Assembly: GCA_013204385.1 (NCBI GenBank)
Contig: JABMNY010000031.1
Span: 1,168-65,167 of the forward strand
Reading direction: 5' to 3'
DNA length: 64,000 nucleotides
DNA from: Candidatus Uhrbacteria bacterium
GTDB lineage: Bacteria > Patescibacteriota > Patescibacteriia > UBA9934 > GWF2-40-263
The position numbers were made by a program, and so were the translations under genes. Below the pieces are notes generated by a model. That model did no database searches. It saw only the letters and a list, made by a program, of their open reading frames with translations, and was not told where the DNA came from. Below are positions 5,562 through 63,743 of this stretch, piece after piece; positions within the stretch are counted from its first letter, which is position 1; the number at the start of each line of letters is the position of its first letter.

Positions 5562-5982
5562 GGGGCTGATCGGTATCGACGGGAGATCCTTCCAACCTGA
5601 TCAAGCCGTGTGGGTACGACTGCACGTAAATAAACTCGTACAAGACGACAACTGCAAACAACGTCATGGCAATGATCAAGAACGCTTTCAGTGTTCCTTC
5701 ATTCGCCCCTGTTCTCGCCTAAGGGTAAGAGAACCATTCGCCTTAGCTCGTCTGGGTGTTAAGTGTCGGGTGTTATAAATCCAGACTGGAGTGTGAGGTC
5801 ATCGATCTCTCACATTCGAGATTTGCGATCGATCCCTTGTTACGTATTACGCTACGTCTTAAGCGTAACATTGTAATCAGATGTACCCGGCGGAGCCGGG
5901 TCCGGTTAGCCGGAGATGTGCTTGGAAACGTCATGTTGCAAAGCCTTACCGCACGGGAGTTCGATTCTCCCCAGCTCCACCA
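5562..5982 (+). ncRNA. ssrA: tmRNA (ssrA), about 421 nt; candidate tag reading frame 5654-5719 (ANNVMAMIKNAFSVPSFAPVLA) with TAA stop at 5720-5722
   Basis: The 5' end GGGGCTGATCGGTATCGACGGG matches the canonical tmRNA start (GGGGCUGAUUCUGGAUUCGACGGG). The 3' end GGGAGTTCGATTCTCCCCAGCTCCACCA is a T-arm plus acceptor stem plus CCA. The divergently adjacent gene is smpB. Confidence 0.85.
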
Positions 5983-6020
5983 AGAAACGGCCGTCATTCA
6001 AATGACGGCCGTTTCTTATT
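5983..6020 (+). terminator. rho-independent terminator of ssrA
   Basis: Hairpin aacggccgtcatt-caa-aatgacggccgtt followed by tcttatt. Confidence 0.6.
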
Positions 6021-6059
6021 GGACTTGTGGGGATGAGAACTCCCGTATGGAGTTCGATG

Positions 6060-6300
6060 CGTGAGAGAGTGAGGGAGTAAATAAAAAGTCACCTGTGTTT
6101 GTGACTCTTTATTTACTCCCGAGCGAACGAACGCAATATTGGATTTGAAAAATCCAATATTCTCCCCAGCTCCAACAAAAACACGCCACCAATAGGTGAC
6201 GTGTTTTTGAGTTGCTCAGTACCAGTGTACTGAGCCGTGATGCATCGCTTATCAGCGATACAGGTCAAGGTGATGACCTAATGACCATCACCTCGCGTGA
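6060..6300. repeat. array of at least five consecutive strong hairpins/palindromes; includes a 19/20-bp stem at 6073-6120 and a partial copy of the tmRNA 3' end (ttctccccagctccaaca, 6157-6174)
   Basis: Inverted repeats read directly: gggagtaaataaaaagtcac/gtgactctttatttactccc; aatattggattt/aaatccaatatt; aacacgccac/gtgacgtgtt plus T5; gctcagtac/gtactgagc; atcgct/agcgat; ggtgatg/catcacc. Confidence 0.5.
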
Positions 6301-6663: not shown

Positions 6664-7110
6664 CTAGTTCCCTTTCATTCTTTCTCTCATCTCTCTTTGA
6701 ACATCACGCTTCTTTACGGACTCGCGCTTCTCGTACTGTTTCTTTCCGCGCGCGACGGAGAACTCCAGTTTGACGATTCCCCCCTTTGTGTACAGGGAGA
6801 GTGGAATGAGTGTCAGTCCGTCTACTTGGCGTTTACCCACAAGTCGATTCAACTCCCGTTTATGCACAAGGATCTTTCTATCTTGATACGGGTCATACCC
6901 GTCTTGTGTCCCAGCTGGTTTATACGGGGCAATGTACGCTCCTTTCAACCAAAGTTCTCCCTTGTGGATATGTAGAAATGCCCCTTTAAGTTGGACTTGC
7001 CCTGCTTTTGCGGACTTCACTTCAGCCCCGGACAACTTCAAACCACCCTCGAGTGTTTCAAGGATTTCGTAATCGAATCGGGCTTTTTTGTTTATCGCTA
7101 AGGATGACAT
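6664..7110 (-). CDS. smpB: SsrA-binding protein SmpB
   Basis: 148 aa; the N-terminal KKARFDYEILE motif and basic C-terminal tail are typical of SmpB; adjacent to the tmRNA. Confidence 0.9.
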   Translation of the reverse strand: MSSLAINKKARFDYEILETLEGGLKLSGAEVKSAKAGQVQLKGAFLHIHKGELWLKGAYIAPYKPAGTQDGYDPYQDRKILVHKRELNRLVGKRQVDGLTLIPLSLYTKGGIVKLEFSVARGKKQYEKRESVKKRDVQREMRERMKGN

Positions 7111-9632: not shown

Positions 9633-9911
9633 TTACGAACGTCTGAAACGCACTAAGCGTTTGGCTAAAAACCGACGTCCAGCTGTTGATTTAAAATACT
9701 TCTCCCGTGCTCGTGCATCTCCTTCATCAAGACACGCTTCATAATACTCCAGATTAAATAGTCTTCGATATTTTGTAGAGATCACTCGACCATCTTGATG
9801 TTCCTGAAACCTTTTTTTTAAATCCCCAGTAAAACCGACATAGCGTAACCCATCCTTCTGACTTTTTAGGACGTACATATACCAAAAGGTCAAAGTAGTC
9901 TTACCGGGCAT
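9633..9911 (-). CDS. GIY-YIG nuclease-domain protein (YhbQ/UPF0213-like)
   Basis: YMYVLKSQKDGLRYVGFTGDLKKRFQEHQ ... REKYFKSTAGRRF is the GIY-YIG / URI-domain signature; start taken at MPGKTT. Confidence 0.65.
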   Translation of the reverse strand: MPGKTTLTFWYMYVLKSQKDGLRYVGFTGDLKKRFQEHQDGRVISTKYRRLFNLEYYEACLDEGDARAREKYFKSTAGRRFLAKRLVRFRRS

Positions 9912-16155: not shown

Positions 16156-16372
16156 TAGGCACGCCCCTTCCCTCCCTTTAGATATTTCTCACGACTCTTT
16201 GCCTCTTGTTCTGAAAGATACGCCTCGAAGTACATAAGTCTGAAAGGCAATCTATTTTTTGTCGCTGGAACGCTTCCAGTTTCATGTTGTGAAAATCTTT
16301 TATTACATCCTGAGAGTATCCAATATAAAGTTTTCTATCAAAAAGACTAAATAAAACGTATACGTAATACAT
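16156..16372 (-). pseudogene. frameshifted GIY-YIG (YhbQ-like) gene fragment
   Basis: Frame A gives MYYVYVLFSLFDRKLYIGYSQDVIKDFHN, the GIY-YIG N-terminus. After about HN the homologous C-terminus (KNRLPFRLMYFEAYLSEQEAKSREKYLKGGKGRA, compare SKRGPWKVIYYEAYLNQKDALGREKFLKSGSG of the 63477 copy) continues in the +2 frame to the stop at 16156. Confidence 0.6.
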
Positions 16373-16591
16373 AGATAATTAGCATAACAAAACAAGTCGC
16401 TTTCGCGACTTGTTTTGGCTACCGATATGAGCTCGGAACGAATGCTGTCGAGCTCAGCTCGACGACCTTCGCTTCTGTACTTGAGCGCGGATGATGTCGA
16501 GCATAGCGCGATCACCTTCGCTTCCATACTTCGGTTGAATCTCGGCAAAGCTGAGCTTTGCCTTCTGCACATTCAACCGAGCTCAGCTCGG

Positions 16592-28311: not shown

Positions 28312-31300
28312 TTATTCGTAAGGACAGTACGTTATATTGAAGTCGCTGAATTCCATTGTTCCAGTTCCATAAAATGCATTTCTGAGTGGAATCACCTGTT
28401 CCGTTGACTGACAGGCAAACGCTGTTGGAAATGGAAGTTCGACATTTGAACCTGATTGAACTTCACTTGTTGTAGTATAGGTTCCATCGTCATCCGTTGT
28501 CGTAAATGTTACCCGTGTCCCAAGAATGGAATCCACAATCGCGGCATACATCTCAGCAATTTCGTCTGAGCTGGATGCTGAAAACGCATAATCTCCCTCA
28601 CAATCTCCAGTGGACGTCACGCTACTCCACGCACATTCATTACTAGACATATGTGCCATATATCCCTTTAGATCACTGTCTGTTGTGACCGCTGCTGAGT
28701 AAATGAGGATGTCACTTCTTGGCACACCTTCCGTAGATCCATCAATAAGTACATCGGAGATCTCAGCTACACACGCAGGAACATCCGCATAATATGATGT
28801 CGATGGATAATTAGACCATGCATATCCAGAACATCCGGTAGACGAACCAACATTGAAAGTGCTATTGAGACCTGGATCTCCATCAGATAAGAGAACTACA
28901 ATTTTTACTTCGGCTGTAGATGCGCTCAGGATAGAAATAGCTTCACTCAATCCGTTATACGTAGGTGTTCCATTTACTACAGAATCGGCATAATCATCAA
29001 GGATACTCATCATGCTTGACTCCGACGAATATAAACTCAATCCAATATCAATTTCCGCTCCATCATCTACAGAACAATCTTCATCTTCACAATCAGCATT
29101 ATACTGACAGACATTGCCATCATCTGACCCCCCACTACAAAGTCCTGTTGATCCAGAGAAGGAGACGAGGGAAATCTGCATGGTCGCATCCAGTGAACCG
29201 TACGCATCAAAAAGATCTGAAACAGCATCTCGCGTTGCTTCAACCACATAGTCAATTCTTCGAATTCCAACAGGAGCTCCAGAAGCTTCACATGTCGACC
29301 CATCACATGATGAAGAACTTGTACACGCATCTCCGTCATTGGTTCCCCCATTACAATACTGATTCGTGTCCACATCCCAATCCATACTTCCTGAAAGATC
29401 CGTGACGAATACAATATCAACATCTGGATGCTCCACATCTTCATCATTAATATCTGCTGTAATCGATGTTGCAACACTGCAGGCTGGAATATAGAGCGCT
29501 GCATTATCAGGAGAATCGCCTTCATCATTCAGATAACTATAAAGCCTAATGGACTCTCCAGGAGTAGCTCCTAACGATTCACTCACAACAAATAATCCTG
29601 TCGTCTCATAAGATGTCGGACATGATGATCCGCAATTATCAGCGCAAATTGGTGCCACACAATCTCCTCCACTACAGGAATTGACGTCATTTCCTGATGT
29701 AAGCTCAGAAACCGTTCCACTACTTGCGTACGTTGTGTAGTTGAGTGTGCAATATTCTCCATTTTCCGTTCCCCCATTACAAACTCCAAGCCATCTACAG
29801 GTATAGCCATCTGAATCTGTTGTGTCATATTCCTCTGAAGCACAGGAGCCCGTTATGCTTCCTGATGTTGAATCATAATTCTTAAACGCGGTTGAATACG
29901 TTCCGTCACACACTTCAGAACCATTCACAACCCCATCTCCACAATAGGCTCCAGAGGTCGTCTTATACTGACAGATTGTGTTGCAATAATTACATGTACT
30001 GCCATAGTCGGCTTCACATAGCACTCCATTTCCTCCATGACTATCAACTTCCCCATCATCACAAGACTCGACGCCAACATAGACATAATCATCTCCACAG
30101 ACGTTTTCTTCACAGGTATTCAAACACGAATCATTGTTTGAGGAGTTTCCATCGTCGCACGCTTCATCTCCTTCCACTGTTCCGTTTCCACAAGTCTGAT
30201 CTCCTCCAACAGGACCCGTCCAAGTTGTTGGCCATTCACAAGATGAAGAGCAGGTTCGATAGCGATAAAGGTCGTATGTATTTGTAGAACATGCTCCACC
30301 ATTATCTTCACAATCTTCATTTGTATCTGTTGAATCACACGTATCTCCCGCATCATCCCCACCAATACAAATCGTTCCTGAACCCGCTGCTTCATATCCT
30401 GTCCCACCACAGGTATCCGTTCCATCACAATCACTGGTGGTCGTACAAGTTGTCACTCCATCAGAACAGAGTTTTCCTTCCCAGGATTCATAATCCCCGT
30501 CACAAGATTCACTTCCATTTACAATTCCATCTCCGCAAGAGAGCCCAGGAAGCGTGCAATTATACGCACAGTTATCTCCACCCGCATCATACTGTCCGTT
30601 TGAAGTTGCGCACCATGGAGAAGCAGTTGTTCCTGTTGCATCTGGACCTATTGTTGCCCAACTACTTGATTCTAAAATCACACTTGCATACGTGCTCGTT
30701 GTTCCACAATCACATTGCTCAGAACCAGCTAAATATCCATCTCCACAGGAGAATGAACCTGTGGCAGTACAAGTGTCTCCACAATGTCCGTAGGTTCCGT
30801 TCAATGAGCCATCATCACAATCCTCACCTGTTTCCACGACACCATTTCCACAATCATAAGGGATGCATTCTGCTCCTGCAAATTCTGCTTCTGTTTGATC
30901 TTGAAAATCTGAACAATCTGATAAACAGGAAACGGCAATCACTCCACCAGAAGCAGTGCAAGCAATGGTCATTGTATCTCCAATCTCACAACCTTCTAAC
31001 GCTCCTTGTGTTCCATCTCCACATAACGCTGAGTCTCCCCAAGTGCTTCCATCACAGAAGACCGGTGTCAATGAAAATCCGCTCATGACAGAACTTGGCG
31101 CGTTTCCTGTTGGATACTCAACTGTAATCGTTCCCTCGTCTGTAGAATCCGCATCTATATCTTCGGTCCATTCATATTCTCCAGAAAGTTCAAGGGTTGC
31201 ATAAAGTTTGTACGCCTCGCCTCCGACACTCTGATAGCCATACACATGTGAATTCTCTGGACACATAAACGTTCCAGATTCTCCGTTCCAACAAGAAGCA

Positions 31301-34300
31301 GAATCGTATCCGTCTTCTGAGCAGTTAAAAAATTCGTTTATTGGATCCGTTGGAAGTGTCGTTCCAAGTTCATTTGCAAGTGAGGCATTCCAAGAGCTCC
31401 AGATAGAGTTTGAGATTGCAGGAATAAACGTCCCAGATTGCACATCAGGAAACCCTACAACACAGACCTCTGTTCCAGGACAATCCTCATCTGCGTCACA
31501 AGATTGACCTTGTGTTACGGCACAATGTCCATTCTCCTCTCCGTAGGAATCGAGTGATGAAGCAAGGGCAGTCACGTCAATAAGTCGTTGCATGTCGCGT
31601 GTCAATTTTGCTTTTTGTCCATCACAGACAATAGTCTCTTCCTCAAACTCTTCATAACAATCCCCATCCCATTCACAGCTCACATACTCCTCATCCTCAT
31701 TCAGCGCATACGTTCCATCAGATTCATCCTGACACAAATTGATATTTGTCACTTCAAGATTATTCGCGTTAAACCGCCAATTCGTAAGCAATTGAGAGAA
31801 GATCTCCTCTGATTCTGCACTCGCATTGTCGTTATAGGAAACAACATACATGTTTGGATAGATATCTCCTGACGATTCAATAAGGTTTGCAGCTGCAGCA
31901 TACAGCGTATTTCCAGACTCAACCGCTGAATAGGAATCAAGTTCCGTCTGTGTAAATGCTCCCGTAAACTGTTGTTCCTCCACCCAATCAGCAGGTGAGA
32001 GATAACTTGCATTTGGAAGGACACGTACTCCAATCGCATCACTTGATCCTTCAACTTTAAAGATAATTTCTTGTCGAATCACCGATGAATCAAATGATGT
32101 GACATCGATTGGATCACCGAGCGCAGGAAGATCATCTTCTGTTCCATCTTCTCCTGCATCGCGACAGTAATAAAATGAGAAATAACTTGGGAGTACATCC
32201 TCCACGTATGGAAAACTTAAGGTTTCTGAAGCAAGGGAAGGCCATGGATTCTCACACAAAAGAGCTCTCACTTCTAGCGTTCCGGAAACAGTTCTTGCAG
32301 GAGATGATTCATCTGCATCCGTAGTTTCATCGTCTTCAATCTCAGCAGTAGATGGGTCAAACAACTCATCATCTGTAATGGTTGCAATCGCAAGCACGAT
32401 TTCACTTCCGTCATTTCCACTTGCGGTAAAACTACGAGTTGTGTCTTCTGGCTCCTCTGTCTCTGGGGTTATAACATTTGTTGAAGCAGAGTCTGTAATC
32501 GAAGATGCCCAAGACCAATCCCAATCATAGAGTCCTTCAATTGGAGAGATTTCTTGATATCCTCCAGCGCGATATGTTTGTGGTGTCGCGACAAACGCAT
32601 GCTCTTCTCCTGTTGTACTGAAATACTGAATACTCAAAGATTCATACTCTTCTGCATCCACATCCCCTGTATCCTCAAGAAGCACGCGATCAAGATCACA
32701 AATCTCTTCACCGATCGCAAATTTTTGACTGAAATATTCATCTTCGCAATCATCATCAATACAGAGAGTTACATCGTTTTGACTCAAGACACCTGTCTTT
32801 TCACTATCTGTTGGAGTCTCGTCGCCCACAACAACCAACTTATAGATTGCATTTTCTTGTAATAATTCACTGAAACGAAGATACACACGGGAGGTTCCAT
32901 CACCATTTTGCACGATCGAATAACTCGTGACCGGCACGTAACAGGAAAAAGTACTTGACGCCTGAACCTCACGACCAAACAACCCAAGAACAACTGATTT
33001 TATAAAATGCCAAATCTTTCCTCCGAAGCTCACAGACTCTGAACCAAGAGAACCAATGTACCCGGACGGACAATCTGCAATGTCGCTCACCGTCTCTTGA
33101 GCTCCGTCTCCATCTGAGTCAACGGAAACAAGATCAATGTAGAGATTTGAATCAAATTCATCCTCTTGAATTGTTCCATCCCCATCTAAATCCTCGGACG
33201 TTCCAAAGGTTGTCTCATCCATCGATTCTGAAAATTCAATCCATACAGCACTATTTCGACAGAACCCCTCATCCGTTCCTGCAAGAAATGCCACAGAGTT
33301 ATCTGCGGGAGAAAGTTCTCCAATTGTTGGACGTTCATAACAACAGTTACTTTCCCCACATCCCAAACCAGCCGCTCCACACGAATTATCTGTGGTACAA
33401 GCACACTGTAATCGAAGCGTTGCCTCTCCTTCCACATCCTCATCCACAACAACAGAAATGGTCGAGATAGCGTATCCTGTGTCTTCGTTTACTTCCGTTG
33501 GAGCACCTGTTGCAACTTGCGCAACACCATAATCTCCTGCTGAGAACGAGGCTGTTGAAAGGGCGTCACAATCCTCTGCGGTTCCAACAATGCCGTCGCC
33601 ACAAAAAGATGGTGTCGCATACTCGTACGACGACCCAAGCCAGAGACAACTGCTTGAACATCCCTCGTCTCCGTCACATGCTTCTCCGGTGTCTACATCT
33701 CCATTTCCACAACAGTTTGCTGAATCACTGGTTGGACACACACTGCTTCCTTCGTACAAACACTCAGAAGAACATCCATCGTCTTCCGCAGAATAATCAC
33801 CTGGGTCACAGTCTTCTCCTTCGTCAATGGTGCCGTCTCCACAAATGGCATAGACATCGTCTTCTGAAGCAGATCCTTCTAAGAGGCAATTCCTTGAACA
33901 ACCATCACCACTTGATGTGTTTCCATCATCGCAATCCTCACCTCCAGTATTTACCACCCAATCCTGTGTTCCATCTCCGCAGACTGAACCGATCGACCGA
34001 GCTCCCTCATTTTTACATGAAGAGGAGCATCCATCACCACTCGTAATGTTTCCATCGTCACAATCTTCTCCTCCCGCAGAGGCTGACCAATCTCGTACTC
34101 CATTTCCACAACAACCTGAACCTGAACGTTCACAGCTATCGCCAGAGTAATAAACACACTCACTACTTGCGCCAGAACAAACACCTCCTGAGAGAGAACA
34201 AGCTCCTACACAAGAACCTGAATCACAGACCCCGTCGTTGGAACACGATGTGTCTGCGTCCTCAAAATCTTCACACAAACCAGCTTCCGAACAGCTTCTG

Positions 34301-37300
34301 CTTTCACATCCTTCGTCTCCTACACAGGCATTACCCACATCTGAAGCAGATGTGCACATAGCGCTTGCACACGTCTCATTACAGGATGCGTCGTTTGTAC
34401 ACTCCGCTCCTGAGGAACTACATGTTGCATCACACTGTACTGATCCTTCATTTAAACACACAGCAGAACATCCATCTCCAGCCTCTGTCCCGCCATCATC
34501 ACATTCTTCGGAATCTTCTACTGATCCATTTCCACAAACTCCGTCAGCGATCGTGACAGGAGCCCCCGCATTCAAGCACGCTGCTGTACAGTAACTTGCA
34601 ATATCAGATGTCAGCTCGATCGCTCCATTTGAAATCATGTAGGAAACGACCTCATCTGAATCCGTGGTACTGGTACTCACTCCATTTTGATTTTGCGCGT
34701 CAGTCGAAACCCATGCATCCCAAAGGTAAGATCCTGACTGAAGCGTTTGACCCTGATCTGAACAATCATCAGGGGCTCCTAATGCAAATGCATCAAACTC
34801 TGCGCGATCTCCCACATAGTAGAGCGTTGCGACAGATGGATCGAGTGTAAGCGAATCAACCGCACAACTCACCGCATCATTTTTTGTTCGAAACACCCAT
34901 GAGAACGCATCTTCAAAATACCGGTTATCATCCGTTCCGTAATTGGAACCTGAGTCAGAAAGAGCAACTCCCGTACAAGAATAAATTTCTGTCGCATCAA
35001 CAACTACGCGATACCAGGTATTGGGCTCTAAGGTCTCTCCATCATTAAAATTAATATAGAACTTCTGGGTTGAATCTTCTTCTGTCTCACAGGTATCGCC
35101 TGAAAAACTCACTGAGGCAACTTCTGCAAACTCCGTCAGTTCTGATGTTTCACACAATGAGTTGTCACATTCATATAATGTGACAGCGCCTGCTCCAATC
35201 GTTCCTCCATCCATCTTTGTATTAAATTCAGCCCAAGGCAACGCGTTCACACACGCGGTTGTACATTGTGGAAAGTAATCTTCAATTTCTGGATCGAGAA
35301 AATTAATCGTCAACTCCCCCTCACCCGATGGATCTCCTTCTGCGTCTGTAACGGTTGCGGTAATAATGGCTGGATCATCTGAAGTCGTTTCAGATTGTGC
35401 ATACACTTCATTCACACACACACCAGACCATTCAGATGTTGGAATTAACACATCGTCTGAAACAGAATCCCAATACAAGGTATATCCAGCACAACTCAAC
35501 GCAACACAACTATCGTTTTGTGCGGTCAGCTGAGCTGTGTAGTCAACGTATGCTTGTTCTGTTTGCGTATATTCCCCTGGACGCACATTCACGTCTCCCA
35601 CCTCACATAATTCCGTAGAGCTACTTGTTGTAAACTCCCAATCAAAATCTTCCGCGAGATATCCTCCATCTGCACTTTGGATTTGATCTCCTCCCTGAAG
35701 AGAGACCTGGTAATGTGTCCCCGCTTCAAACAACCCAGACGTAGGTTGCCAGGAAAATCCTGTTTCGTCTGGAGTAGGCATTGTGCCTTCGACAACCTCC
35801 CAAGTCTTACACTCTCCTTCACTTGCCAAGACACAAGACTCGTCCTCGTCTTCACAATCTCCAACATCGTCACACGCATCTCCTGAAAACGAGCAATAGC
35901 GGTCTTCTGCGGTTTCTTCTTCAAGGGTAAATTCTGAACTACAAGAACGAACAATAACCGTCGATGTCGTAAGTGTATCGCCGTTCATCGCCATATTAAA
36001 CTCAGCTTGCACACTTGCATTCAAACAAATATCGTCTGGGTCGCTCCATCCATCCCACGGAGATGGAGAAGTTCCATCTTCATCACAGGCAAGAATGACA
36101 CGCGGGGTATTTGGTGTAATCCCTGTCGTAATTTTAAATGCATAATGTGCTGACACTTCTTCTGTCTCGTCACAGGTTTCTGAACACGAACCATTAGAGC
36201 AACAACTCTCCCCCTCAGAACACAGGTCTGCATCCTCGCGACAATCTCCTACACTAAATGTCACAGAATTAGATGAATACCCACTTTCAGACTCTTCAAT
36301 ATAAACAGGTCCAGTTGCGGCTTCATCTGGAACGATCACAGATGAAATTTCATCATTTGCCCAAACCCCAAAAGTGGTCTCTTGTGTGGAATAAAAGACA
36401 ACCGTTCCATCATCAGACCCAAGATTCTCTCCGTAGAGCGTAATTTCAGATTCCGCTGGTCCAGCAGAAGGATCGATATTACAGATCGATGGTCCGGGCA
36501 CCTCATCAAGAACAACAAAATCCTCTGCTCCTGATGTATTTCCATCCGCGCGCTCAACAGTCAATGCGTGCGTGATTGCCTCAATCGCATCCTCATCTTC
36601 TGTAAGATACGTCTCAGGGACCTTCATGGTAATAGAGGTGTCATGCCAAAAATCTTCACCACAGACATCAGGAAAATCTGTATCTCCTAATGCAGTATAC
36701 CCAAGCGATTCGTTATCAAAGAAAACAGATCCAGTAGACGTTCCAAATCCCGTTCCATAAATCGTAATGTACTGACCTGCTGGCCCCCAATTGTCGGCAT
36801 CATCACATGTGGCCCCTTCACTACAATCATCATCAGATCCACAATGGGTATTATCATCTGAACATGCCTGCCAACCTGAATCAATAAAAGAAATGATTGG
36901 ACTAGAAGAACTTGAAGAGTCAGCTACGGTAAATGTAACTTTATTTGATCCAACACGGACTGATTCACAAGACCCTCCATCATCTCCACAATCGTCGTCA
37001 TCTCCACAGTACTCAAGTGTTTCAGAGCACCAAGACGCAGCACAACTCTCACCTGCATCTGTGTCACAATCTTCATCGTCTGTACAAGTATCTCCTGTAG
37101 CTACGTTATCTGTATCAACACACAGATAGTCCCCCGTAAACACTTGTCCACTATATCTTCCGGAATTCACATTTGGAACGGAAAGATTCAAGAGTGTGTC
37201 GGACCATGAAACATAGGTACTTGCTTCGTAGTTTGTAAAATAAAACGTAGAAGATCCTTGTGAATCTCCAAAACTGTTTCCGTACACTTCGATGGTAGAT

Positions 37301-38976
37301 CCATAGGTGTCTGAATCTGGATCAAGGAGACAAATTCCAGGTCGCGCAATCGCATTTACATCAAAGTCTGAAATGGATGGACCATAATCATCATCTGTTC
37401 GTTCTGTTTCGTCATCACTTGTCACAACAGAGATCGGTCCATCAATTGCCCCAGAAGGGACTTGGACAATAATCTCAGAATCTGACCATTGAATCTCAGA
37501 ATTACATTCGTAGGCAGATGCAGAGGTCTCGTCACTATTTTCTGTTCCCAAGAAATAGAGAACACCTTCCTCATCTCCAAACCCTTCTCCAGAGATTGTA
37601 ATCAGATTTCCTTCAGCTCCATCTCCTGCAGAAACACTCTCAATTTTTGGAATGGTAACGCATTGTCCGTCGACACATTGTCCGCTTGCACAATCGGAAT
37701 CTTCAGAACATGAATCTCCATCGCAAGACCCACAGTAGTAAGCACTTGAAGAATCTCCTCCGCAATCCACTTCTGTTTCACCCAAATCTTCATCGAGCAC
37801 TTCGTTATTACAATTTGCTGCACGCAACACAATTGAAACACGAGATGCCGTATCAGAATTACCGGCACAATCGTATCCTTTTGCCCAAATGTTATACGTT
37901 TCATTTGTGGTATATCCTTCTGTGTCCCATTCCTCAGCTGTATCACTAAAGAATGCATTTTCAACATTTCCTCCTAGCAGTTCACCTGCATTTGAATAAT
38001 CAACTCCTGAGGAATAGATCGCTTCCTCATCATCAATGACATAAAAATCAACGGTTGAAACACCACTATCATCTGATGTCAGAGCTTGTAAAAGTTCAAT
38101 AGAACCCGCATAAAAACTCTCACCGTTTTCAGGAGCATCGATCTCAACGGTTGGATCTGCGATATCCACCTCTGATCCTGTTGTAAAACTAAAGGAGCAT
38201 GGATACGAACTTGAACAGGTCAGCGATGAACCAGCTGATGAATCGATTACCGTTGAATCGAGATCAATCGTATAACTACTGAGGGGATCAAAACAGGACT
38301 CATCTTCATATGGACTGTCACATGCTTGCGAAGGGGTAAACGTTACTGTACGACTCGAAACAATGAACGTTCCCTCAACAGCATCTCCTCCAGCATCTCG
38401 AATAAGGATACCTTCTTCCACAGTGTCCCCATCAATTTTCTTTGAGAAAACAAACTGGAGCTGAAGATTCTGCAATGCCTCTGCGCACTCTGTGTTCACA
38501 GAACTCAAATAAAATGTGGAGCTTCCACTTCCGTCTGTATAGGAACCTGACGAGGACGAGCTTCCAGAAATATCACCACTCGTCGCCCCCACAAGCGCAT
38601 TTAAAATAAACTGTGCGATCGCAAAACTTGAAAATACCAGTATGAGTCCGATCACCGAATTAATGATGATCTTCTTAGCCTTTGCAATCCTCTCAGGACT
38701 TCCTCCTGCCGTCATGTACACAAACCCTCCGTAGAGTATGAACACGACCGTCACAACTCCCACGAGCGTAATTGCCGTTCGAATGAGACGTGCAATGATC
38801 ACAGTGATGCTTGCTGTGGTGGAGAACCCAGCAGTCTCTGCGAATGACTCAAGATTCACATCTTGAGCAAATACTGGCGCGGCAACGAAAATCCCAACAC
38901 ATAATATTAGTGCAAGGAAAACGCCTAAGTAAGTTGCCCGAGTGAATCTACGCATGTCGTTAAAGTTCAGTTTCAC
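28312..38976 (-). CDS. giant (3554 aa) cysteine-rich secreted surface protein: signal peptide, VirB2/TrbC-like two-helix membrane module, Ig-like domains, four IPT/TIG domains, two clusters of Myxococcus-type Cys-rich repeats and a C-terminal vWA domain; putative adhesin
   Basis: One uninterrupted 10.6-kb ORF. N-terminus: signal peptide ending FAQ, then IIARLIRTAITLVGVVTVVFILYGGFVYM...AKAKKIIINSVIGLILVFSSFAIAQFIL. IPT/TIG-like blocks (e.g. PKIESVSAGDGAEGNLITISGEGFG...). Many CGDG/CGNG-x5-8-E-x-CDDGN units. MIDAS motif DIVFVTDLSGSM. Plus-strand His-rich ORFs across this span are antisense artefacts. Confidence 0.85.
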   Translation of the reverse strand: MKLNFNDMRRFTRATYLGVFLALILCVGIFVAAPVFAQDVNLESFAETAGFSTTASITVIIARLIRTAITLVGVVTVVFILYGGFVYMTAGGSPERIAKAKKIIINSVIGLILVFSSFAIAQFILNALVGATSGDISGSSSSSGSYTDGSGSSTFYLSSVNTECAEALQNLQLQFVFSKKIDGDTVEEGILIRDAGGDAVEGTFIVSSRTVTFTPSQACDSPYEDESCFDPLSSYTIDLDSTVIDSSAGSSLTCSSSYPCSFSFTTGSEVDIADPTVEIDAPENGESFYAGSIELLQALTSDDSGVSTVDFYVIDDEEAIYSSGVDYSNAGELLGGNVENAFFSDTAEEWDTEGYTTNETYNIWAKGYDCAGNSDTASRVSIVLRAANCNNEVLDEDLGETEVDCGGDSSSAYYCGSCDGDSCSEDSDCASGQCVDGQCVTIPKIESVSAGDGAEGNLITISGEGFGDEEGVLYFLGTENSDETSASAYECNSEIQWSDSEIIVQVPSGAIDGPISVVTSDDETERTDDDYGPSISDFDVNAIARPGICLLDPDSDTYGSTIEVYGNSFGDSQGSSTFYFTNYEASTYVSWSDTLLNLSVPNVNSGRYSGQVFTGDYLCVDTDNVATGDTCTDDEDCDTDAGESCAASWCSETLEYCGDDDDCGDDGGSCESVRVGSNKVTFTVADSSSSSSPIISFIDSGWQACSDDNTHCGSDDDCSEGATCDDADNWGPAGQYITIYGTGFGTSTGSVFFDNESLGYTALGDTDFPDVCGEDFWHDTSITMKVPETYLTEDEDAIEAITHALTVERADGNTSGAEDFVVLDEVPGPSICNIDPSAGPAESEITLYGENLGSDDGTVVFYSTQETTFGVWANDEISSVIVPDEAATGPVYIEESESGYSSNSVTFSVGDCREDADLCSEGESCCSNGSCSETCDETEEVSAHYAFKITTGITPNTPRVILACDEDGTSPSPWDGWSDPDDICLNASVQAEFNMAMNGDTLTTSTVIVRSCSSEFTLEEETAEDRYCSFSGDACDDVGDCEDEDESCVLASEGECKTWEVVEGTMPTPDETGFSWQPTSGLFEAGTHYQVSLQGGDQIQSADGGYLAEDFDWEFTTSSSTELCEVGDVNVRPGEYTQTEQAYVDYTAQLTAQNDSCVALSCAGYTLYWDSVSDDVLIPTSEWSGVCVNEVYAQSETTSDDPAIITATVTDAEGDPSGEGELTINFLDPEIEDYFPQCTTACVNALPWAEFNTKMDGGTIGAGAVTLYECDNSLCETSELTEFAEVASVSFSGDTCETEEDSTQKFYINFNDGETLEPNTWYRVVVDATEIYSCTGVALSDSGSNYGTDDNRYFEDAFSWVFRTKNDAVSCAVDSLTLDPSVATLYYVGDRAEFDAFALGAPDDCSDQGQTLQSGSYLWDAWVSTDAQNQNGVSTSTTDSDEVVSYMISNGAIELTSDIASYCTAACLNAGAPVTIADGVCGNGSVEDSEECDDGGTEAGDGCSAVCLNEGSVQCDATCSSSGAECTNDASCNETCASAMCTSASDVGNACVGDEGCESRSCSEAGLCEDFEDADTSCSNDGVCDSGSCVGACSLSGGVCSGASSECVYYSGDSCERSGSGCCGNGVRDWSASAGGEDCDDGNITSGDGCSSSCKNEGARSIGSVCGDGTQDWVVNTGGEDCDDGNTSSGDGCSRNCLLEGSASEDDVYAICGDGTIDEGEDCDPGDYSAEDDGCSSECLYEGSSVCPTSDSANCCGNGDVDTGEACDGDEGCSSSCLWLGSSYEYATPSFCGDGIVGTAEDCDALSTASFSAGDYGVAQVATGAPTEVNEDTGYAISTISVVVDEDVEGEATLRLQCACTTDNSCGAAGLGCGESNCCYERPTIGELSPADNSVAFLAGTDEGFCRNSAVWIEFSESMDETTFGTSEDLDGDGTIQEDEFDSNLYIDLVSVDSDGDGAQETVSDIADCPSGYIGSLGSESVSFGGKIWHFIKSVVLGLFGREVQASSTFSCYVPVTSYSIVQNGDGTSRVYLRFSELLQENAIYKLVVVGDETPTDSEKTGVLSQNDVTLCIDDDCEDEYFSQKFAIGEEICDLDRVLLEDTGDVDAEEYESLSIQYFSTTGEEHAFVATPQTYRAGGYQEISPIEGLYDWDWSWASSITDSASTNVITPETEEPEDTTRSFTASGNDGSEIVLAIATITDDELFDPSTAEIEDDETTDADESSPARTVSGTLEVRALLCENPWPSLASETLSFPYVEDVLPSYFSFYYCRDAGEDGTEDDLPALGDPIDVTSFDSSVIRQEIIFKVEGSSDAIGVRVLPNASYLSPADWVEEQQFTGAFTQTELDSYSAVESGNTLYAAAANLIESSGDIYPNMYVVSYNDNASAESEEIFSQLLTNWRFNANNLEVTNINLCQDESDGTYALNEDEEYVSCEWDGDCYEEFEEETIVCDGQKAKLTRDMQRLIDVTALASSLDSYGEENGHCAVTQGQSCDADEDCPGTEVCVVGFPDVQSGTFIPAISNSIWSSWNASLANELGTTLPTDPINEFFNCSEDGYDSASCWNGESGTFMCPENSHVYGYQSVGGEAYKLYATLELSGEYEWTEDIDADSTDEGTITVEYPTGNAPSSVMSGFSLTPVFCDGSTWGDSALCGDGTQGALEGCEIGDTMTIACTASGGVIAVSCLSDCSDFQDQTEAEFAGAECIPYDCGNGVVETGEDCDDGSLNGTYGHCGDTCTATGSFSCGDGYLAGSEQCDCGTTSTYASVILESSSWATIGPDATGTTASPWCATSNGQYDAGGDNCAYNCTLPGLSCGDGIVNGSESCDGDYESWEGKLCSDGVTTCTTTSDCDGTDTCGGTGYEAAGSGTICIGGDDAGDTCDSTDTNEDCEDNGGACSTNTYDLYRYRTCSSSCEWPTTWTGPVGGDQTCGNGTVEGDEACDDGNSSNNDSCLNTCEENVCGDDYVYVGVESCDDGEVDSHGGNGVLCEADYGSTCNYCNTICQYKTTSGAYCGDGVVNGSEVCDGTYSTAFKNYDSTSGSITGSCASEEYDTTDSDGYTCRWLGVCNGGTENGEYCTLNYTTYASSGTVSELTSGNDVNSCSGGDCVAPICADNCGSSCPTSYETTGLFVVSESLGATPGESIRLYSYLNDEGDSPDNAALYIPACSVATSITADINDEDVEHPDVDIVFVTDLSGSMDWDVDTNQYCNGGTNDGDACTSSSSCDGSTCEASGAPVGIRRIDYVVEATRDAVSDLFDAYGSLDATMQISLVSFSGSTGLCSGGSDDGNVCQYNADCEDEDCSVDDGAEIDIGLSLYSSESSMMSILDDYADSVVNGTPTYNGLSEAISILSASTAEVKIVVLLSDGDPGLNSTFNVGSSTGCSGYAWSNYPSTSYYADVPACVAEISDVLIDGSTEGVPRSDILIYSAAVTTDSDLKGYMAHMSSNECAWSSVTSTGDCEGDYAFSASSSDEIAEMYAAIVDSILGTRVTFTTTDDDGTYTTTSEVQSGSNVELPFPTAFACQSTEQVIPLRNAFYGTGTMEFSDFNITYCPYE
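28777..29439 (-). other. von Willebrand factor type A domain of the giant protein (about aa 3180-3400)
   Basis: DIVFVTDLSGSM MIDAS motif (DxSxS) followed by the alternating beta/alpha pattern (...IVVLLSDGDPG...). Confidence 0.6.
29887..31029 (-). other. Cys-rich repeat cluster 2 of the giant protein (about aa 2650-3030)
   Basis: CGNGVVETGEDCDDGSLNG; CGDGIVNGSESCDGD; CGNGTVEGDEACDDGNSSNNDSCLNTCEEN; CGDGVVNGSEVCDG. Confidence 0.5.
33577..34545 (-). other. Cys-rich repeat cluster 1 of the giant protein (about aa 1478-1800)
   Basis: Units such as CGNGSVEDSEECDDGGTEAGDGCSAVCLNEG and CGNGVRDWSASAGGEDCDDGNITSGDGCSSSCKNEG resemble the Myxococcus cysteine-rich repeat (established family, recalled from memory). 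Confidence 0.5.
36247..37650 (-). other. region encoding four IPT/TIG-like domains of the giant protein (about aa 443-910)
   Basis: Positions derived by counting residues; motif pattern P.I.S..P..G..GT.ITI.G.GFG......V.F...... repeated four times. Confidence 0.5.
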
Positions 38977-58492: not shown

Positions 58493-58545
58493 ACAAAAAA
58501 ACACCCAAGCTTTGCTTGGGTGTTTTTGGTGCCGCGGGCGGGAAT
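58493..58545. repeat. 52-nt direct repeat copy A: a duplicate of the tRNA-Leu 3' end (18 nt) plus its downstream terminator hairpin; copy B is at 58681-58732
   Basis: aaaaaacacccaagctttgcttgggtgtttttggtgccgcgggcgggaat occurs twice (one A-run differs by 1 nt); the copies are about 135 bp apart. Confidence 0.8.
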
Positions 58546-58714
58546 ATGGGATTTTAACAAATCCCATATTGCACTCGTTCGTTCGGTACAAAAAATAAGG
58601 TTATAAATATTACTTATTTTTTGCACACTCACTCTCTCCTGCATCGAACCCGGGTGCGGATTCTCATCCTGCACCGCGGAACAAAAAACACCCAAGCTTT
58701 GCTTGGGTGTTTTT

Positions 58715-58800
58715 GGTGCCGCGGGCGGGAATCGAACCCGCACATGGTTACCCATACAGGATTTTGAGTCCTGCGCGTCTACCGGTTCCGCCACCGCGGC
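58715..58800 (-). tRNA. tRNA-Leu (anticodon CAA), class II with a long variable arm, CCA encoded
   Basis: Manually folded: acceptor GCCGCGG/CCGCGGC, anticodon stem CAGGA/TCCTG with loop CTCAAAA, T-arm GCGGG-TTCGATT-CCCGC, discriminator A. Confidence 0.8.
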
Positions 58801-58811
58801 ATTGTTCGCAC

Positions 58812-58937
58812 AAGCTGTCTTTAAAAAAGATGAGATACGCCGTGCTGGAAGGCGGAAAGCTCGTGAAATGTAGGTAATCCTACATTGAGCGAGTTTCCAA
58901 CTGAAGCACAAATAGATCGCTTTTTTAAAGACAGCTT
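58812..58937 (-). repeat. 125-nt inter-tRNA element bounded by a perfect 18-bp inverted repeat (aagctgtctttaaaaaag / cttttttaaagacagctt)
   Basis: Arms at 58812-58829 and 58920-58937, read directly; the second arm abuts the tRNA-Met 3' end. Confidence 0.6.
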
Positions 58938-59013
58938 GGTAGCTGGAGGGGGATTCGAACCCCCGACCTCGGGCTTATGAGTCCCACGCTCTAACCAACT
59001 GAGCTATCCAGCT
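58937..59013 (-). tRNA. tRNA with anticodon CAT (Met; initiator or elongator, or a tRNA-Ile2 lysidine precursor), CCA encoded
   Basis: Acceptor AGCTGGA/TCCAGCT, D-arm TAGCTCAGTTGGTTAGAGC, anticodon loop CTCATAA, T-arm GGGGG-TTCGAAT-CCCCC. One A-G mismatch closes the anticodon stem. Confidence 0.8.
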
Positions 59014-63476: not shown

Positions 63477-63743
63477 TCAAGTGTTTAATTGTTTTTGTAA
63501 ATAATGCCTCACCTGTTTTTTTAAGTATCTCCAACCTGATCCACTTTTTAAAAACTTCTCGCGACCAAGAGCGTCTTTTTGATTAAGGTACGCTTCATAA
63601 TAGATTACTTTCCAAGGTCCTCGTTTTGATGTTGAAGTGTTTCCATCTCGATTATGTTTAGCAACACGTTCTTTAAGATCAGCAGAATATCCAATATACC
63701 ATTTTCCACTCGACATACTTTCAATGACATATACATAGTACAT
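63477..63743 (-). CDS. GIY-YIG nuclease-domain protein (YhbQ/UPF0213-like), second intact copy
   Basis: MYYVYVIESMSSGKWYIGYSADLKERVAKHN...REKFLKSGSGWRY; start taken at the ATG at 63743. Confidence 0.65.
   Translation of the reverse strand: MYYVYVIESMSSGKWYIGYSADLKERVAKHNRDGNTSTSKRGPWKVIYYEAYLNQKDALGREKFLKSGSGWRYLKKQVRHYLQKQLNT

Follow-up and report, generated by a model that had tools for sequence, protein, structure and literature searches.

A likely family of small, protein-free structured elements installed behind tRNA and tmRNA genes of Patescibacteria

Background

Directly behind a tRNA-Leu(CAA) gene in a 64-kb stretch of bacterial DNA (64,000 nucleotides, here called the window), the 3' end of the tRNA and the terminator that follows it occur twice, separated by a short piece of DNA. 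What is this intervening DNA, and how did the duplication arise? The initial annotation of the locus interpreted the two copies as the attL and attR of a tyrosine integrase and the DNA between them as the footprint of an imprecisely lost element or as an empty, still functional attachment site.

Relatives of its parA gene assign the window to Candidatus Uhrbacteria (Patescibacteria, or CPR), and its gene content is that of an ordinary chromosome, with smpB near the tmRNA gene, infC, ftsZ/ftsA, pyk, hisS, dprA, topA, der, pth and parAB. It also holds a 3554-aa ORF (28312-38976, minus strand) whose flanking ORFs have TSP3-repeat, Big_5 and pilin-like Pfam matches, probably a giant surface protein locus.

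Results

The direct repeat and the DNA between its copies

The host gene, tRNA-Leu(CAA), is intact and lies on the minus strand at 58714-58800 (ARAGORN and the Rfam tRNA model, 61.5 bits). A repeat search returned an exact direct repeat of 50 nt, 58496-58545 and 58683-58732, with a start-to-start distance of 187 nt; an exact repeat of this length within 2.3 kb far exceeds what chance would produce. The repeat itself had thus been correctly recognised, and only its limits had to be changed, from 52 nearly identical nucleotides (58493-58545 and 58681-58732) to the exact 50, as the extra bases mismatch. Each copy consists of 19 nt of the tRNA 3' end, from A58 of the T-loop to the CCA, and a 31-nt terminator made of an A-tract, a hairpin and a T-tract. 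Since ARAGORN and Rfam place the gene at 58714-58800, the repeat contains the last 19 nt of the tRNA (58714-58732) and not the last 18. In the proximal copy, A58-A76 are found at 58732-58714 and the hairpin of the first terminator (T1) at 58713-58683; in the distal copy, delimited by the repeat, a terminator scan and the junctions, A58-A76 are at 58545-58527 and the second terminator (T2) is at 58526-58496. A duplicated tRNA 3' part that starts at A58 and includes the CCA is what is seen at integration sites in tRNA genes, where such repeats begin in the anticodon loop, in the T-loop or at the 3' end.

Between the copies there are 137 nt (58546-58682), two more than previously counted, and they are free of ORFs, in agreement with the earlier statement that no genes are present. 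The palindrome that had been described as the only feature of this gap, aatatgggattt/aaatcccatatt, is real (arms 58543-58554 and 58559-58570, 12 of 12 positions matched). It is accompanied by a 14-bp hairpin (58586-58626) and by a stretch at the 5' end of the gap that can pair with the 3' end of the tRNA (inverted repeat I2, 24 nt, 92%). Read along the minus strand, the locus starts with a promoter-like site (59055-59027, promoter scan), followed by tRNA-Met (58937-59013, same orientation as tRNA-Leu), a 128-nt hairpin spacer, tRNA-Leu, T1 and the 137 nt; then come the 19-nt copy of the tRNA 3' end, T2, a gene for a UPF0259 membrane protein, parA and parB.

The possibility of an assembly artefact, raised initially, does not hold. 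The arrangement recurs, about 12% diverged, in a related species that was assembled independently (L006), a separate record (L118) likewise has the arrangement of L006, and about 20 further loci share the layout.

Two other features of this region deserve mention. The spacer between tRNA-Met and tRNA-Leu (58811-58938) is a long hairpin of 128 nt with 19-bp perfect inverted ends and a predicted energy of -54.8 kcal/mol, for which Rfam gave no match. Its relatives are found near tRNAs in L006/L118 (two, in opposite orientations), L128, L009, L005, L004 and L023 (three), as well as in the non-syntenic L094 and L087. Furthermore, the cluster of two tRNA-Met genes and tRNA-Leu(CAA) by parA is conserved in the Uhrbacteria parA loci L004 to L063; hardly any two genomes agree in the order and orientation of its genes, and the cluster is a rearrangement hot spot.

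A second copy behind the tmRNA gene

Two motifs from the 137 nt recur, loosely matched, directly behind the tmRNA gene of the same window and behind a tRNA-Met gene in L026. The former is a second member of the family, situated on the plus strand at 5983-6209, directly 3' of the tmRNA gene (5562-5982), and it is recovered by motif search, nhmmer (E = 4.6e-41) and a covariance model (CM, 62.5 bits), with a fold z-score of -9.74. It is composed of a terminator (5983-6017), a 5' segment (6018-6049), a core (6050-6158), a copy of the tmRNA 3' end in which CCA is mutated to ACA (6159-6177), and a different terminator (6178-6209), all on the plus strand. Two of the five tRNA/tmRNA genes of the window are occupied by the family, the tmRNA copy on the plus and the Leu copy on the minus strand of a window with monotonic GC skew (n = 2). 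The tmRNA itself has a predicted tag peptide of an unusual 22 residues, ANNVMAMIKNAFSVPSFAPVLA (ARAGORN); smpB (6664-7110) is encoded on the opposite strand.

Members, targets and shared anatomy

For a scan of metagenomes we used as query a 21-nt core motif, CCGARCGAACGANNNCAATAT, that is free of tRNA sequence, and obtained 50 loci. Across all collected sequences, a profile HMM (nhmmer) and then a covariance model recognised 23 confident units, 20 of which are located on the same strand as, and directly 3' of, a tRNA or tmRNA gene. The targets comprise seven amino-acid identities and tmRNA: Leu(CAA) in the window, in L006 (= L118) and in L128; tmRNA in the window; Met in L026 and L104; Glu in L131 (three in tandem), L130 and L114 (two); His in L105 and L087; Gly in L125 (two), L094 and L085; Trp in L090; and Cys in L093. 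Arrays of two to three units thus occur in L131, L125 and L114, and decayed or truncated units in L087, L085 and L114. The three remaining units are L096 and L025, both of them cores without tRNA parts, and L103, in which an intact tRNA-Ile is preceded by a duplicated 5' half with the core at its anticodon loop. The 137-nt gap behind tRNA-Leu is hence one member of a previously uncatalogued family of small, protein-free structured elements; neither the literature searched nor Rfam yielded a description of it. The range of the family is likely to be the tRNA and tmRNA genes of Patescibacteria.

A unit measures about 140-190 nt, of which 85-140 nt are core. On the tRNA strand the order is: intact tRNA, T1, a reverse-complement segment, R1 (GGTTCGAT), core, R2 and, usually though not always, T2. 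The 5' segment corresponds to the tRNA 3' part in reverse complement, degenerate to a varying degree, and continues the terminator palindrome without a break. Perfect complements of the tRNA 3' end including the CCA are found in L026 (TGGTAGCTGGAGTGG) and L105 (TGGGGCGGCTAAC), and a recurrent GGATGAGAACC in this segment matches a T-arm (GGAATCGAACC) in reverse complement except for three substitutions, which lie opposite positions 57-59. R1 is a forward mimic of the 5' half of the T-arm and reads GTTCGA(T/C)G in the 20 tRNA/tmRNA-linked units. The core follows the formula GCnn, (GAGn)x3, a variable hairpin P3, (CGAr)x3, nnGC, AATAT, a short hairpin P4, AT.

All these parts can be assigned in the tRNA-Leu unit, on the minus strand. 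Its 5' segment (58652-58682; from I2, RNAfold and the comparison of 20 units) reads ttgttCCGCGG.. followed by GGATGAGAAT, which is similar to the T-arm reverse complement; it prolongs the terminator palindrome and, in the predicted fold, pairs with the distal 3'-end copy (helix P1) and with R1 (helix P2'). R1 is GGGTTCGAT at 58643-58651, corresponding to tRNA positions ~51-59. The 5' strand of a purine zipper, GAGAGAGTGAG or (GAGn)x3, occupies 58628-58638, its n covarying with the r of the 3' strand. The long hairpin P3 (58586-58626) is supported by inverted repeat I7, by covariation and by compensatory changes relative to L006; its pairing is maintained in every unit while its sequence is free. 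The 3' strand of the zipper, CGAACGAACGA or (CGAr)x3, and the following GTGCAATAT (58566-58585) were identified by motif search and metagenome scan, and P5 covariation indicates that GTGCAATAT holds the 3' strand of P5 and the beginning of P4. P4 (58543-58570) is the palindrome mentioned above (inverted repeat I9, 12/12); it covaries, shows a compensatory change from G-C to U-A relative to L006, and its 3' strand overlaps A58-T60 of the distal tRNA 3'-end copy.

R2 is the second copy of the tRNA 3' end; of 19 junctions, 17 have A58 of the T-loop as its first base. Because T1 differs from T2, the identity between the two 3'-end copies ends no more than one base from the CCA in 11 of the 19; terminators that flank a unit are mostly unlike each other. 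The repeat behind tRNA-Leu spans the whole terminator and is therefore atypical among the units, with L026 (55 nt) and L006 (~52 nt, two mismatches) resembling it in extent; overall, the duplications range from 14 to 93 nt. Since the direct repeat is a target duplication, the tRNA gene stays intact. Distal copies decay (ACA for CCA behind tmRNA, a T-stem change in L128, loss of the CCA in L105 and L094), as displaced and unused ends would be expected to do.

Note that among the 193 tRNA genes scanned in the collected loci there are many further 3'-end duplications of the same layout with different cores. In L019, L022, L027, L048, L062, L042, L066 (three tandem units of 85 nt) and at the second tRNA-Met of L104, the order is tRNA, terminator, reverse-complement T-arm, a different core and a duplicated 3' end. 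There are mirror cases too (L055, L056, L042, L131 and L090), in which it is the tRNA 5' half that is duplicated; the duplicate precedes an intact tRNA and has a GC-rich hairpin in its D-loop. Still another small tRNA-linked repeat family is represented 3' of tRNA-Asp in the window (16400-16591) by hairpin repeats gagctgagctcg .. cagaaggcaaagctcagctttgcc, with related copies behind tRNA-Met in L011 and behind tRNA-Leu in L058.

Fold and covariation

In the CM alignment of the 23 units, standard pairs fill 89.9% of the cells, compared with 68% in shuffles, and 19 of 23 pairs show a compensatory change (covariation 0.568 vs 0.184). None of 500 shuffles equalled the observed values, and controls with slid partners were 31-47% paired. 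Because a CM alignment is fitted to its model, we also counted pairs in a MAFFT alignment of nine units that was made without regard to structure, with P5 added. Here 85.9% of cells are paired and 15 of 28 pairs are compensatory, again with 0 of 500 shuffles reaching these values and with slid controls at 33-40%. P5 covaries cleanly (UGCUG/CAGCA, UGCGU/ACGCA, UGUGU/ACACA, UGCAU/AUGCA, UGCUC/GAGCA). The zipper consists of opposed purine-rich strands with three repeats of G-C, A.G, G.A, n-r, where the n-r positions are C-G (7), U-G (4), U-A (3) and otherwise A.A.

G.U and U.G pairs together (18) exceed A.C and C.A (6), and the purine motifs are on one strand; it is therefore the tRNA-sense strand that folds. 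In 18 of 20 units the minimum-energy fold is a four-way junction. Its arms are P1, formed by the 5' segment and R2; P2', formed by the T-loop complement and R1; P5-zipper-P3; and P4. The z-score of the Leu copy is -6.75. Set beside a tRNA-like RNA, whose acceptor-type helix ends in a free NCCA, P1 uses the authentic tRNA 3' strand in 18 of 20 predicted folds, and its 5' strand frequently pairs with the discriminator base and the CCA as well, the distal copies of L105 and L094 being without CCA. In the predicted structure it is thus the duplicated 3' end that closes the four-way junction.

Polymorphism, exchange and age

The related Uhrbacteria species represented by L006 has a parA that is 90% identical, the same gene order and the same arrangement behind tRNA-Leu, with the copies 190 nt apart. 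L007, L008 and L011 lack the element, and only a terminator stands between the orthologous tRNA-Leu and parA; altogether, only 3 of ~80 Uhrbacteria/Patescibacteria parA loci contain the core. The elements of the window and of L006 are about 88% identical, and changes in the P3 and P4 stems are compensated while the adjoining intergenic DNA is scrambled. Within each of these two genomes both terminator copies share lineage-specific changes, so the two 50-nt repeats evolve in concert. As it is shared with L006, the Leu copy of the window is old, and possibly it is no longer moving.

In the array of L131 the order is T1-unit-T2-unit-T1-unit-T3, which fits successive insertions of a segment composed of A58..CCA, terminator, reverse-complement segment, R1 and core at position 57/58. 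Within one sample, a near-identical core interior of 94 nt is found behind tRNA-Glu (L131) and behind tRNA-Gly (L125), where the flanks derived from the tRNA differ; both loci, like L006 and L118, come from Crystal Geyser samples. In L104, L019 and L022, a single tRNA-Met sequence is combined with two terminator types, in either order, and with three different cores, which implies an exchange of modules by recombination.

A metagenome contig of the same species (L001, 1-50; JGI 3300033275) begins at the first base of the repeat (attcccgcc..). This exact start at the repeat boundary indicates that assemblers break there; the remaining contigs of the species are too short, or are broken inside or just past the repeat.

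Gene and database searches

No integrase, reverse transcriptase or transposase domain was found among the 40 ORFs of the 64-kb window that were scanned, and no integrase Pfam match within 5 kb of the element. Searches of Rfam 15 gave no match to the element apart from chance-level ones at E <= 1 and E <= 10 (two loci), and blastn of the 137 nt against phage and plasmid collections gave none. The exact 32-nt core of the repeat was not found in the viral and metagenome collections, and the core motif had a single chance match among viral contigs, in coding-like sequence at a locus where no tRNA was called. With the neighbouring UPF0259 protein as query, the genome collection returned no relatives.

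Shared neighbour "proteins" around 18 sites were rejected as spurious ORFs that read through the element. The only recurrent neighbours are small GIY-YIG proteins, loosely linked to 3 of the 18 sites at distances of ~0.1-4 kb. ORFs with nothing but this domain (PF01541) are located in the window at 9636-9911, 63510-63725 and 16161-16378 (all on the minus strand; the last was detected by tblastn only, in two pieces) and in L090 at 2348-2593. Two of these small ORFs lie ~200 nt 3' of tRNA-Met and tRNA-Asp, and the one in L090 is placed between pieces of a pseudo-tRNA-Trp and the intact, element-bearing tRNA-Trp. They may be homing-type genes linked to tRNAs.

Several other readings of parts of the unit were tried and discarded. 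The segment GGATGAGAA is a mutated T-arm reverse complement rather than a hammerhead or box C/D motif. A degenerate tandem tRNA-Leu pseudogene would have its 5' part forward, and it is in reverse complement; a group IIC intron remnant after a terminator lacks a hairpin resembling domain V; integron attC-like or Helitron/IS91-like ends misfit in consensus and junction offsets; and an AAV-type (GAGC)n Rep-binding site disagrees with the two purine strands, which here oppose each other as non-Watson-Crick pairs.

Discussion

What the element is likely to be

We consider it likely that the region represents one of many related small elements, structured and without a protein, which insert behind the tRNA and tmRNA genes of Patescibacteria and are mobile and non-autonomous. 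Mobility is suggested by the empty orthologous sites, by the near-identical core interior behind two different tRNAs and by the differing terminators around the units, and the tRNA-derived segments presumably serve recognition. Enzymes of the host or acting in trans would recognise the folded sense strand, and a unit would effectively enter at T-loop position 57/58, bringing with it a replacement 3' end and a terminator. The recognised form of the folded sense strand is most likely RNA, produced by read-through from the tRNA promoter, as the strand-specific pairing suggests; against this, G.T and sheared G.A pairs form in single-stranded DNA too, and read-through may be low, since T1 resembles a competent terminator in the terminator scan. 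One observation also fits something other than mobility, namely that the concerted 50-nt repeats are compatible with a maintained local structure.

Alternative explanations

The tyrosine-integrase reading has in its favour that a direct repeat of a tRNA 3' end starting in the T-loop is the classical signature of such integration, and the signature stands in kind, as the duplication is of the target type, starts at A58 and the site is polymorphic. The enzyme itself finds no support. Against the view that the 137 bp are junk left by a lost island or an empty att site, they are conserved, covarying and repeated with the same boundaries at eight kinds of target; in no unit is there cargo between the core halves, no integrase was found within 5 kb or among the 40 ORFs scanned, the viral, phage and plasmid collections are without a match, and the reverse-complement segment and the separation of R1 from R2 are left unexplained. 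The relative L006 shows the same tandem arrangement, an observation that the initial annotation had itself set against the att reading. The gap is a complete member of a conserved structured family, and we regard its interpretation as a lost or empty integrase site as very improbable. Another form of recombination, in which a mini integrative or hairpin element (an attP-like or REP/PATE-like cassette, without functional RNA) is moved as double- or single-stranded DNA by a T-loop-class integrase, HUH enzyme or bridge-RNA-type recombinase encoded elsewhere, would turn the folds into DNA hairpins or cruciforms. The precise T-loop junctions, tandem arrays and replacement 3' end are outcomes of integrase-type insertion, and by folding, the strand reconstitutes the target as a duplex, in the manner of single-stranded attP sites; the CTX phage and integron attC are known single-stranded folded recombination sites of this sort. 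However, a circle of ~190 bp is very small for double-stranded recombination, the two units of the window differ in orientation relative to replication (tmRNA +, Leu -; n = 2), the conserved single-strand purine motifs resemble an RNA motif, and P3 and P4 cannot be sequence-specific transposase sites because their sequence varies freely. Such DNA-level movement appears unlikely to us.

Homing by gene conversion would require a nuclease, for which the small tRNA-adjacent GIY-YIG proteins are candidates, that cuts the T-arm of a tRNA gene, after which repair copies the element allele by way of homology in the tRNA body and in the distal copy of the 3' end, with natural transformation as the route between cells. 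This accounts for the donor-like proximal 3' end and T1 next to a native-like distal copy and T2 (L128, L131, tmRNA) and for the terminator modules shuffled among L104, L019 and L022, and it agrees with the presence of dprA in the window and of GIY-YIG ORFs near tRNAs. We nevertheless judge it improbable: the right-hand homology is just 19 nt, neither the reverse-complement segment nor the acquisition of new tRNA identities is explained, and the GIY-YIG genes, near only 3 of 18 sites, encode proteins without a DNA-binding domain. Finally, the units could be immobile, vertically inherited trailers whose RNA or structure acts in 3' processing, termination or as a decoy. The conservation between the window and L006, the compensatory changes, the concerted terminators and the constant co-orientation with the tRNA all agree with a trailer of this kind. 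It is at odds with the sporadic occurrence (3 of ~80 parA loci), the empty sites in close relatives, the tandem arrays, the same core behind different tRNAs and the decayed or truncated units, which make it quite improbable.

Comparison with known elements

An attP core in the T-loop of tRNA-Ala is known from mycobacteriophage Ms6 (PMC1762012). As in T-loop integrative elements generally, the identity block of our units extends from the T-loop to the tRNA 3' end, the displaced end forms a direct repeat, the element supplies a replacement 3' end that keeps the gene intact, and repeated insertion gives tandem fragments. Unlike them, the units have no integrase or cargo and a total size of about 140-190 nt, they carry a reverse-complement copy of the target and covarying, sequence-free helices, and one core family serves at least eight targets. 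In contrast to an attR, the mimic GGTTCGAT and the displaced 3' half are kept apart in every unit by the 85-140-nt core. In MITEs the terminal inverted repeats are conserved throughout a family and the target duplications are short and of fixed length; cis-mobilisable, att-flanked elements are non-autonomous derivatives of streptococcal ICEs. Our elements are similar to both in being short, non-coding, repeated and presumably moved in trans. They differ from MITEs, since the inverted segments copy each local tRNA and change with the target, and the duplication is not fixed (19-55 nt; at the widest 14-93 nt); they differ from palindromic elements derived from IS200/IS605, whose transposase recognises conserved subterminal hairpins, in that P3 and P4 conserve pairing and not sequence.

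Retro-elements that use tRNA 3' ends include LTR elements with their 18-nt primer-binding site, the Mauriceville retroplasmid of Neurospora, with its tRNA-like CCA end and tRNA capture, and tRNA-derived SINEs. Common to these and the present family are a segment complementary to the tRNA 3' end including the CCA (TGGTAGCTGGAGTGG in L026), a copied tRNA 3' fragment bounded at position 58 and an acceptor-like closing helix; here, on the other hand, the host is bacterial, no reverse transcriptase is linked, and reverse transcription is hypothetical. With retron ncRNAs the units share inverted flanks and a variable hairpin, but UPF0259, parA and parB are what follows downstream of the Leu copy, and no RT. 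Group I introns are known from the T-loop of tmRNA genes (PMC11915505), and the target, the T-loop of tRNA-like genes including tmRNA, is the same. Those introns, however, interrupt a functional gene, splice out, measure at least ~200-400 nt and fit the group I model, whereas our core of 85-140 nt has no match to RF00028 and sits in a non-functional duplicate behind an intact gene. In archaea, integrating elements leave scattered fragments of tRNA genes (PMC3293823; bioRxiv 10.1101/2022.07.05.498093), which likewise are partial tRNA copies by intact genes, made by mobile DNA; they border kilobase elements that encode recombinases, unlike the units described here. The features that define these classes, namely an integrase, conserved terminal repeats, a group I core and a linked reverse transcriptase, are missing from the family. 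As a class, it belongs with non-autonomous elements that target tRNA genes, and there is a real chance that its mechanism is new.

A speculative mechanism

A precise and universal T-loop target, guide-like segments derived from the target and the lack of a protein make the family a candidate for RNA-directed insertion. The most coherent model that we were able to build, speculative and drawn from the architecture of the units, is target-primed copying of the tRNA-trailer RNA, to which we assign a rather low probability. According to it, a nick in the antisense strand at 57/58 would prime copying of the element RNA on its R2 segment; the first colonisation would duplicate the region from A58 to the end of the terminator, and a snap-back at the terminator hairpin would make the reverse-complement segment. 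Target priming would yield the exact junction between core and A58, a duplication that ends at the CCA, and arrays with the newest unit first. The model by itself does not explain L103, with its core at an anticodon loop and its 5' duplication, nor the orphan cores of L096 and L025.

Seen more generally, the family could be a bacterial, protein-free element of the retro type, a doubtful proposition at present, in which the trailer (terminator, anti-tRNA segment, core and 3'-end copy) would be a cloverleaf-like RNA that is recopied into tRNA genes. Copying would take place into the same or another tRNA gene, with the segments derived from the tRNA providing both the guide and the primer-binding site.

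Conclusions

Units of this family have practical consequences, as they fragment metagenome assemblies at tRNA genes, and the pseudo-tRNA fragments they leave can mislead tRNA annotation and those island finders that use repeats of tRNA fragments. The genomes of CPR bacteria are tiny and streamlined, yet they harbour several families of small structured insertions at tRNA loci. At the minimum, the present one adds a non-coding RNA motif that is new, covaries strongly and contains a triple G.A zipper of an unusual kind. If the retro-type reading is true, CPR bacteria would harbour a new class of mobile element that is guided by RNA and specific for tRNA genes.
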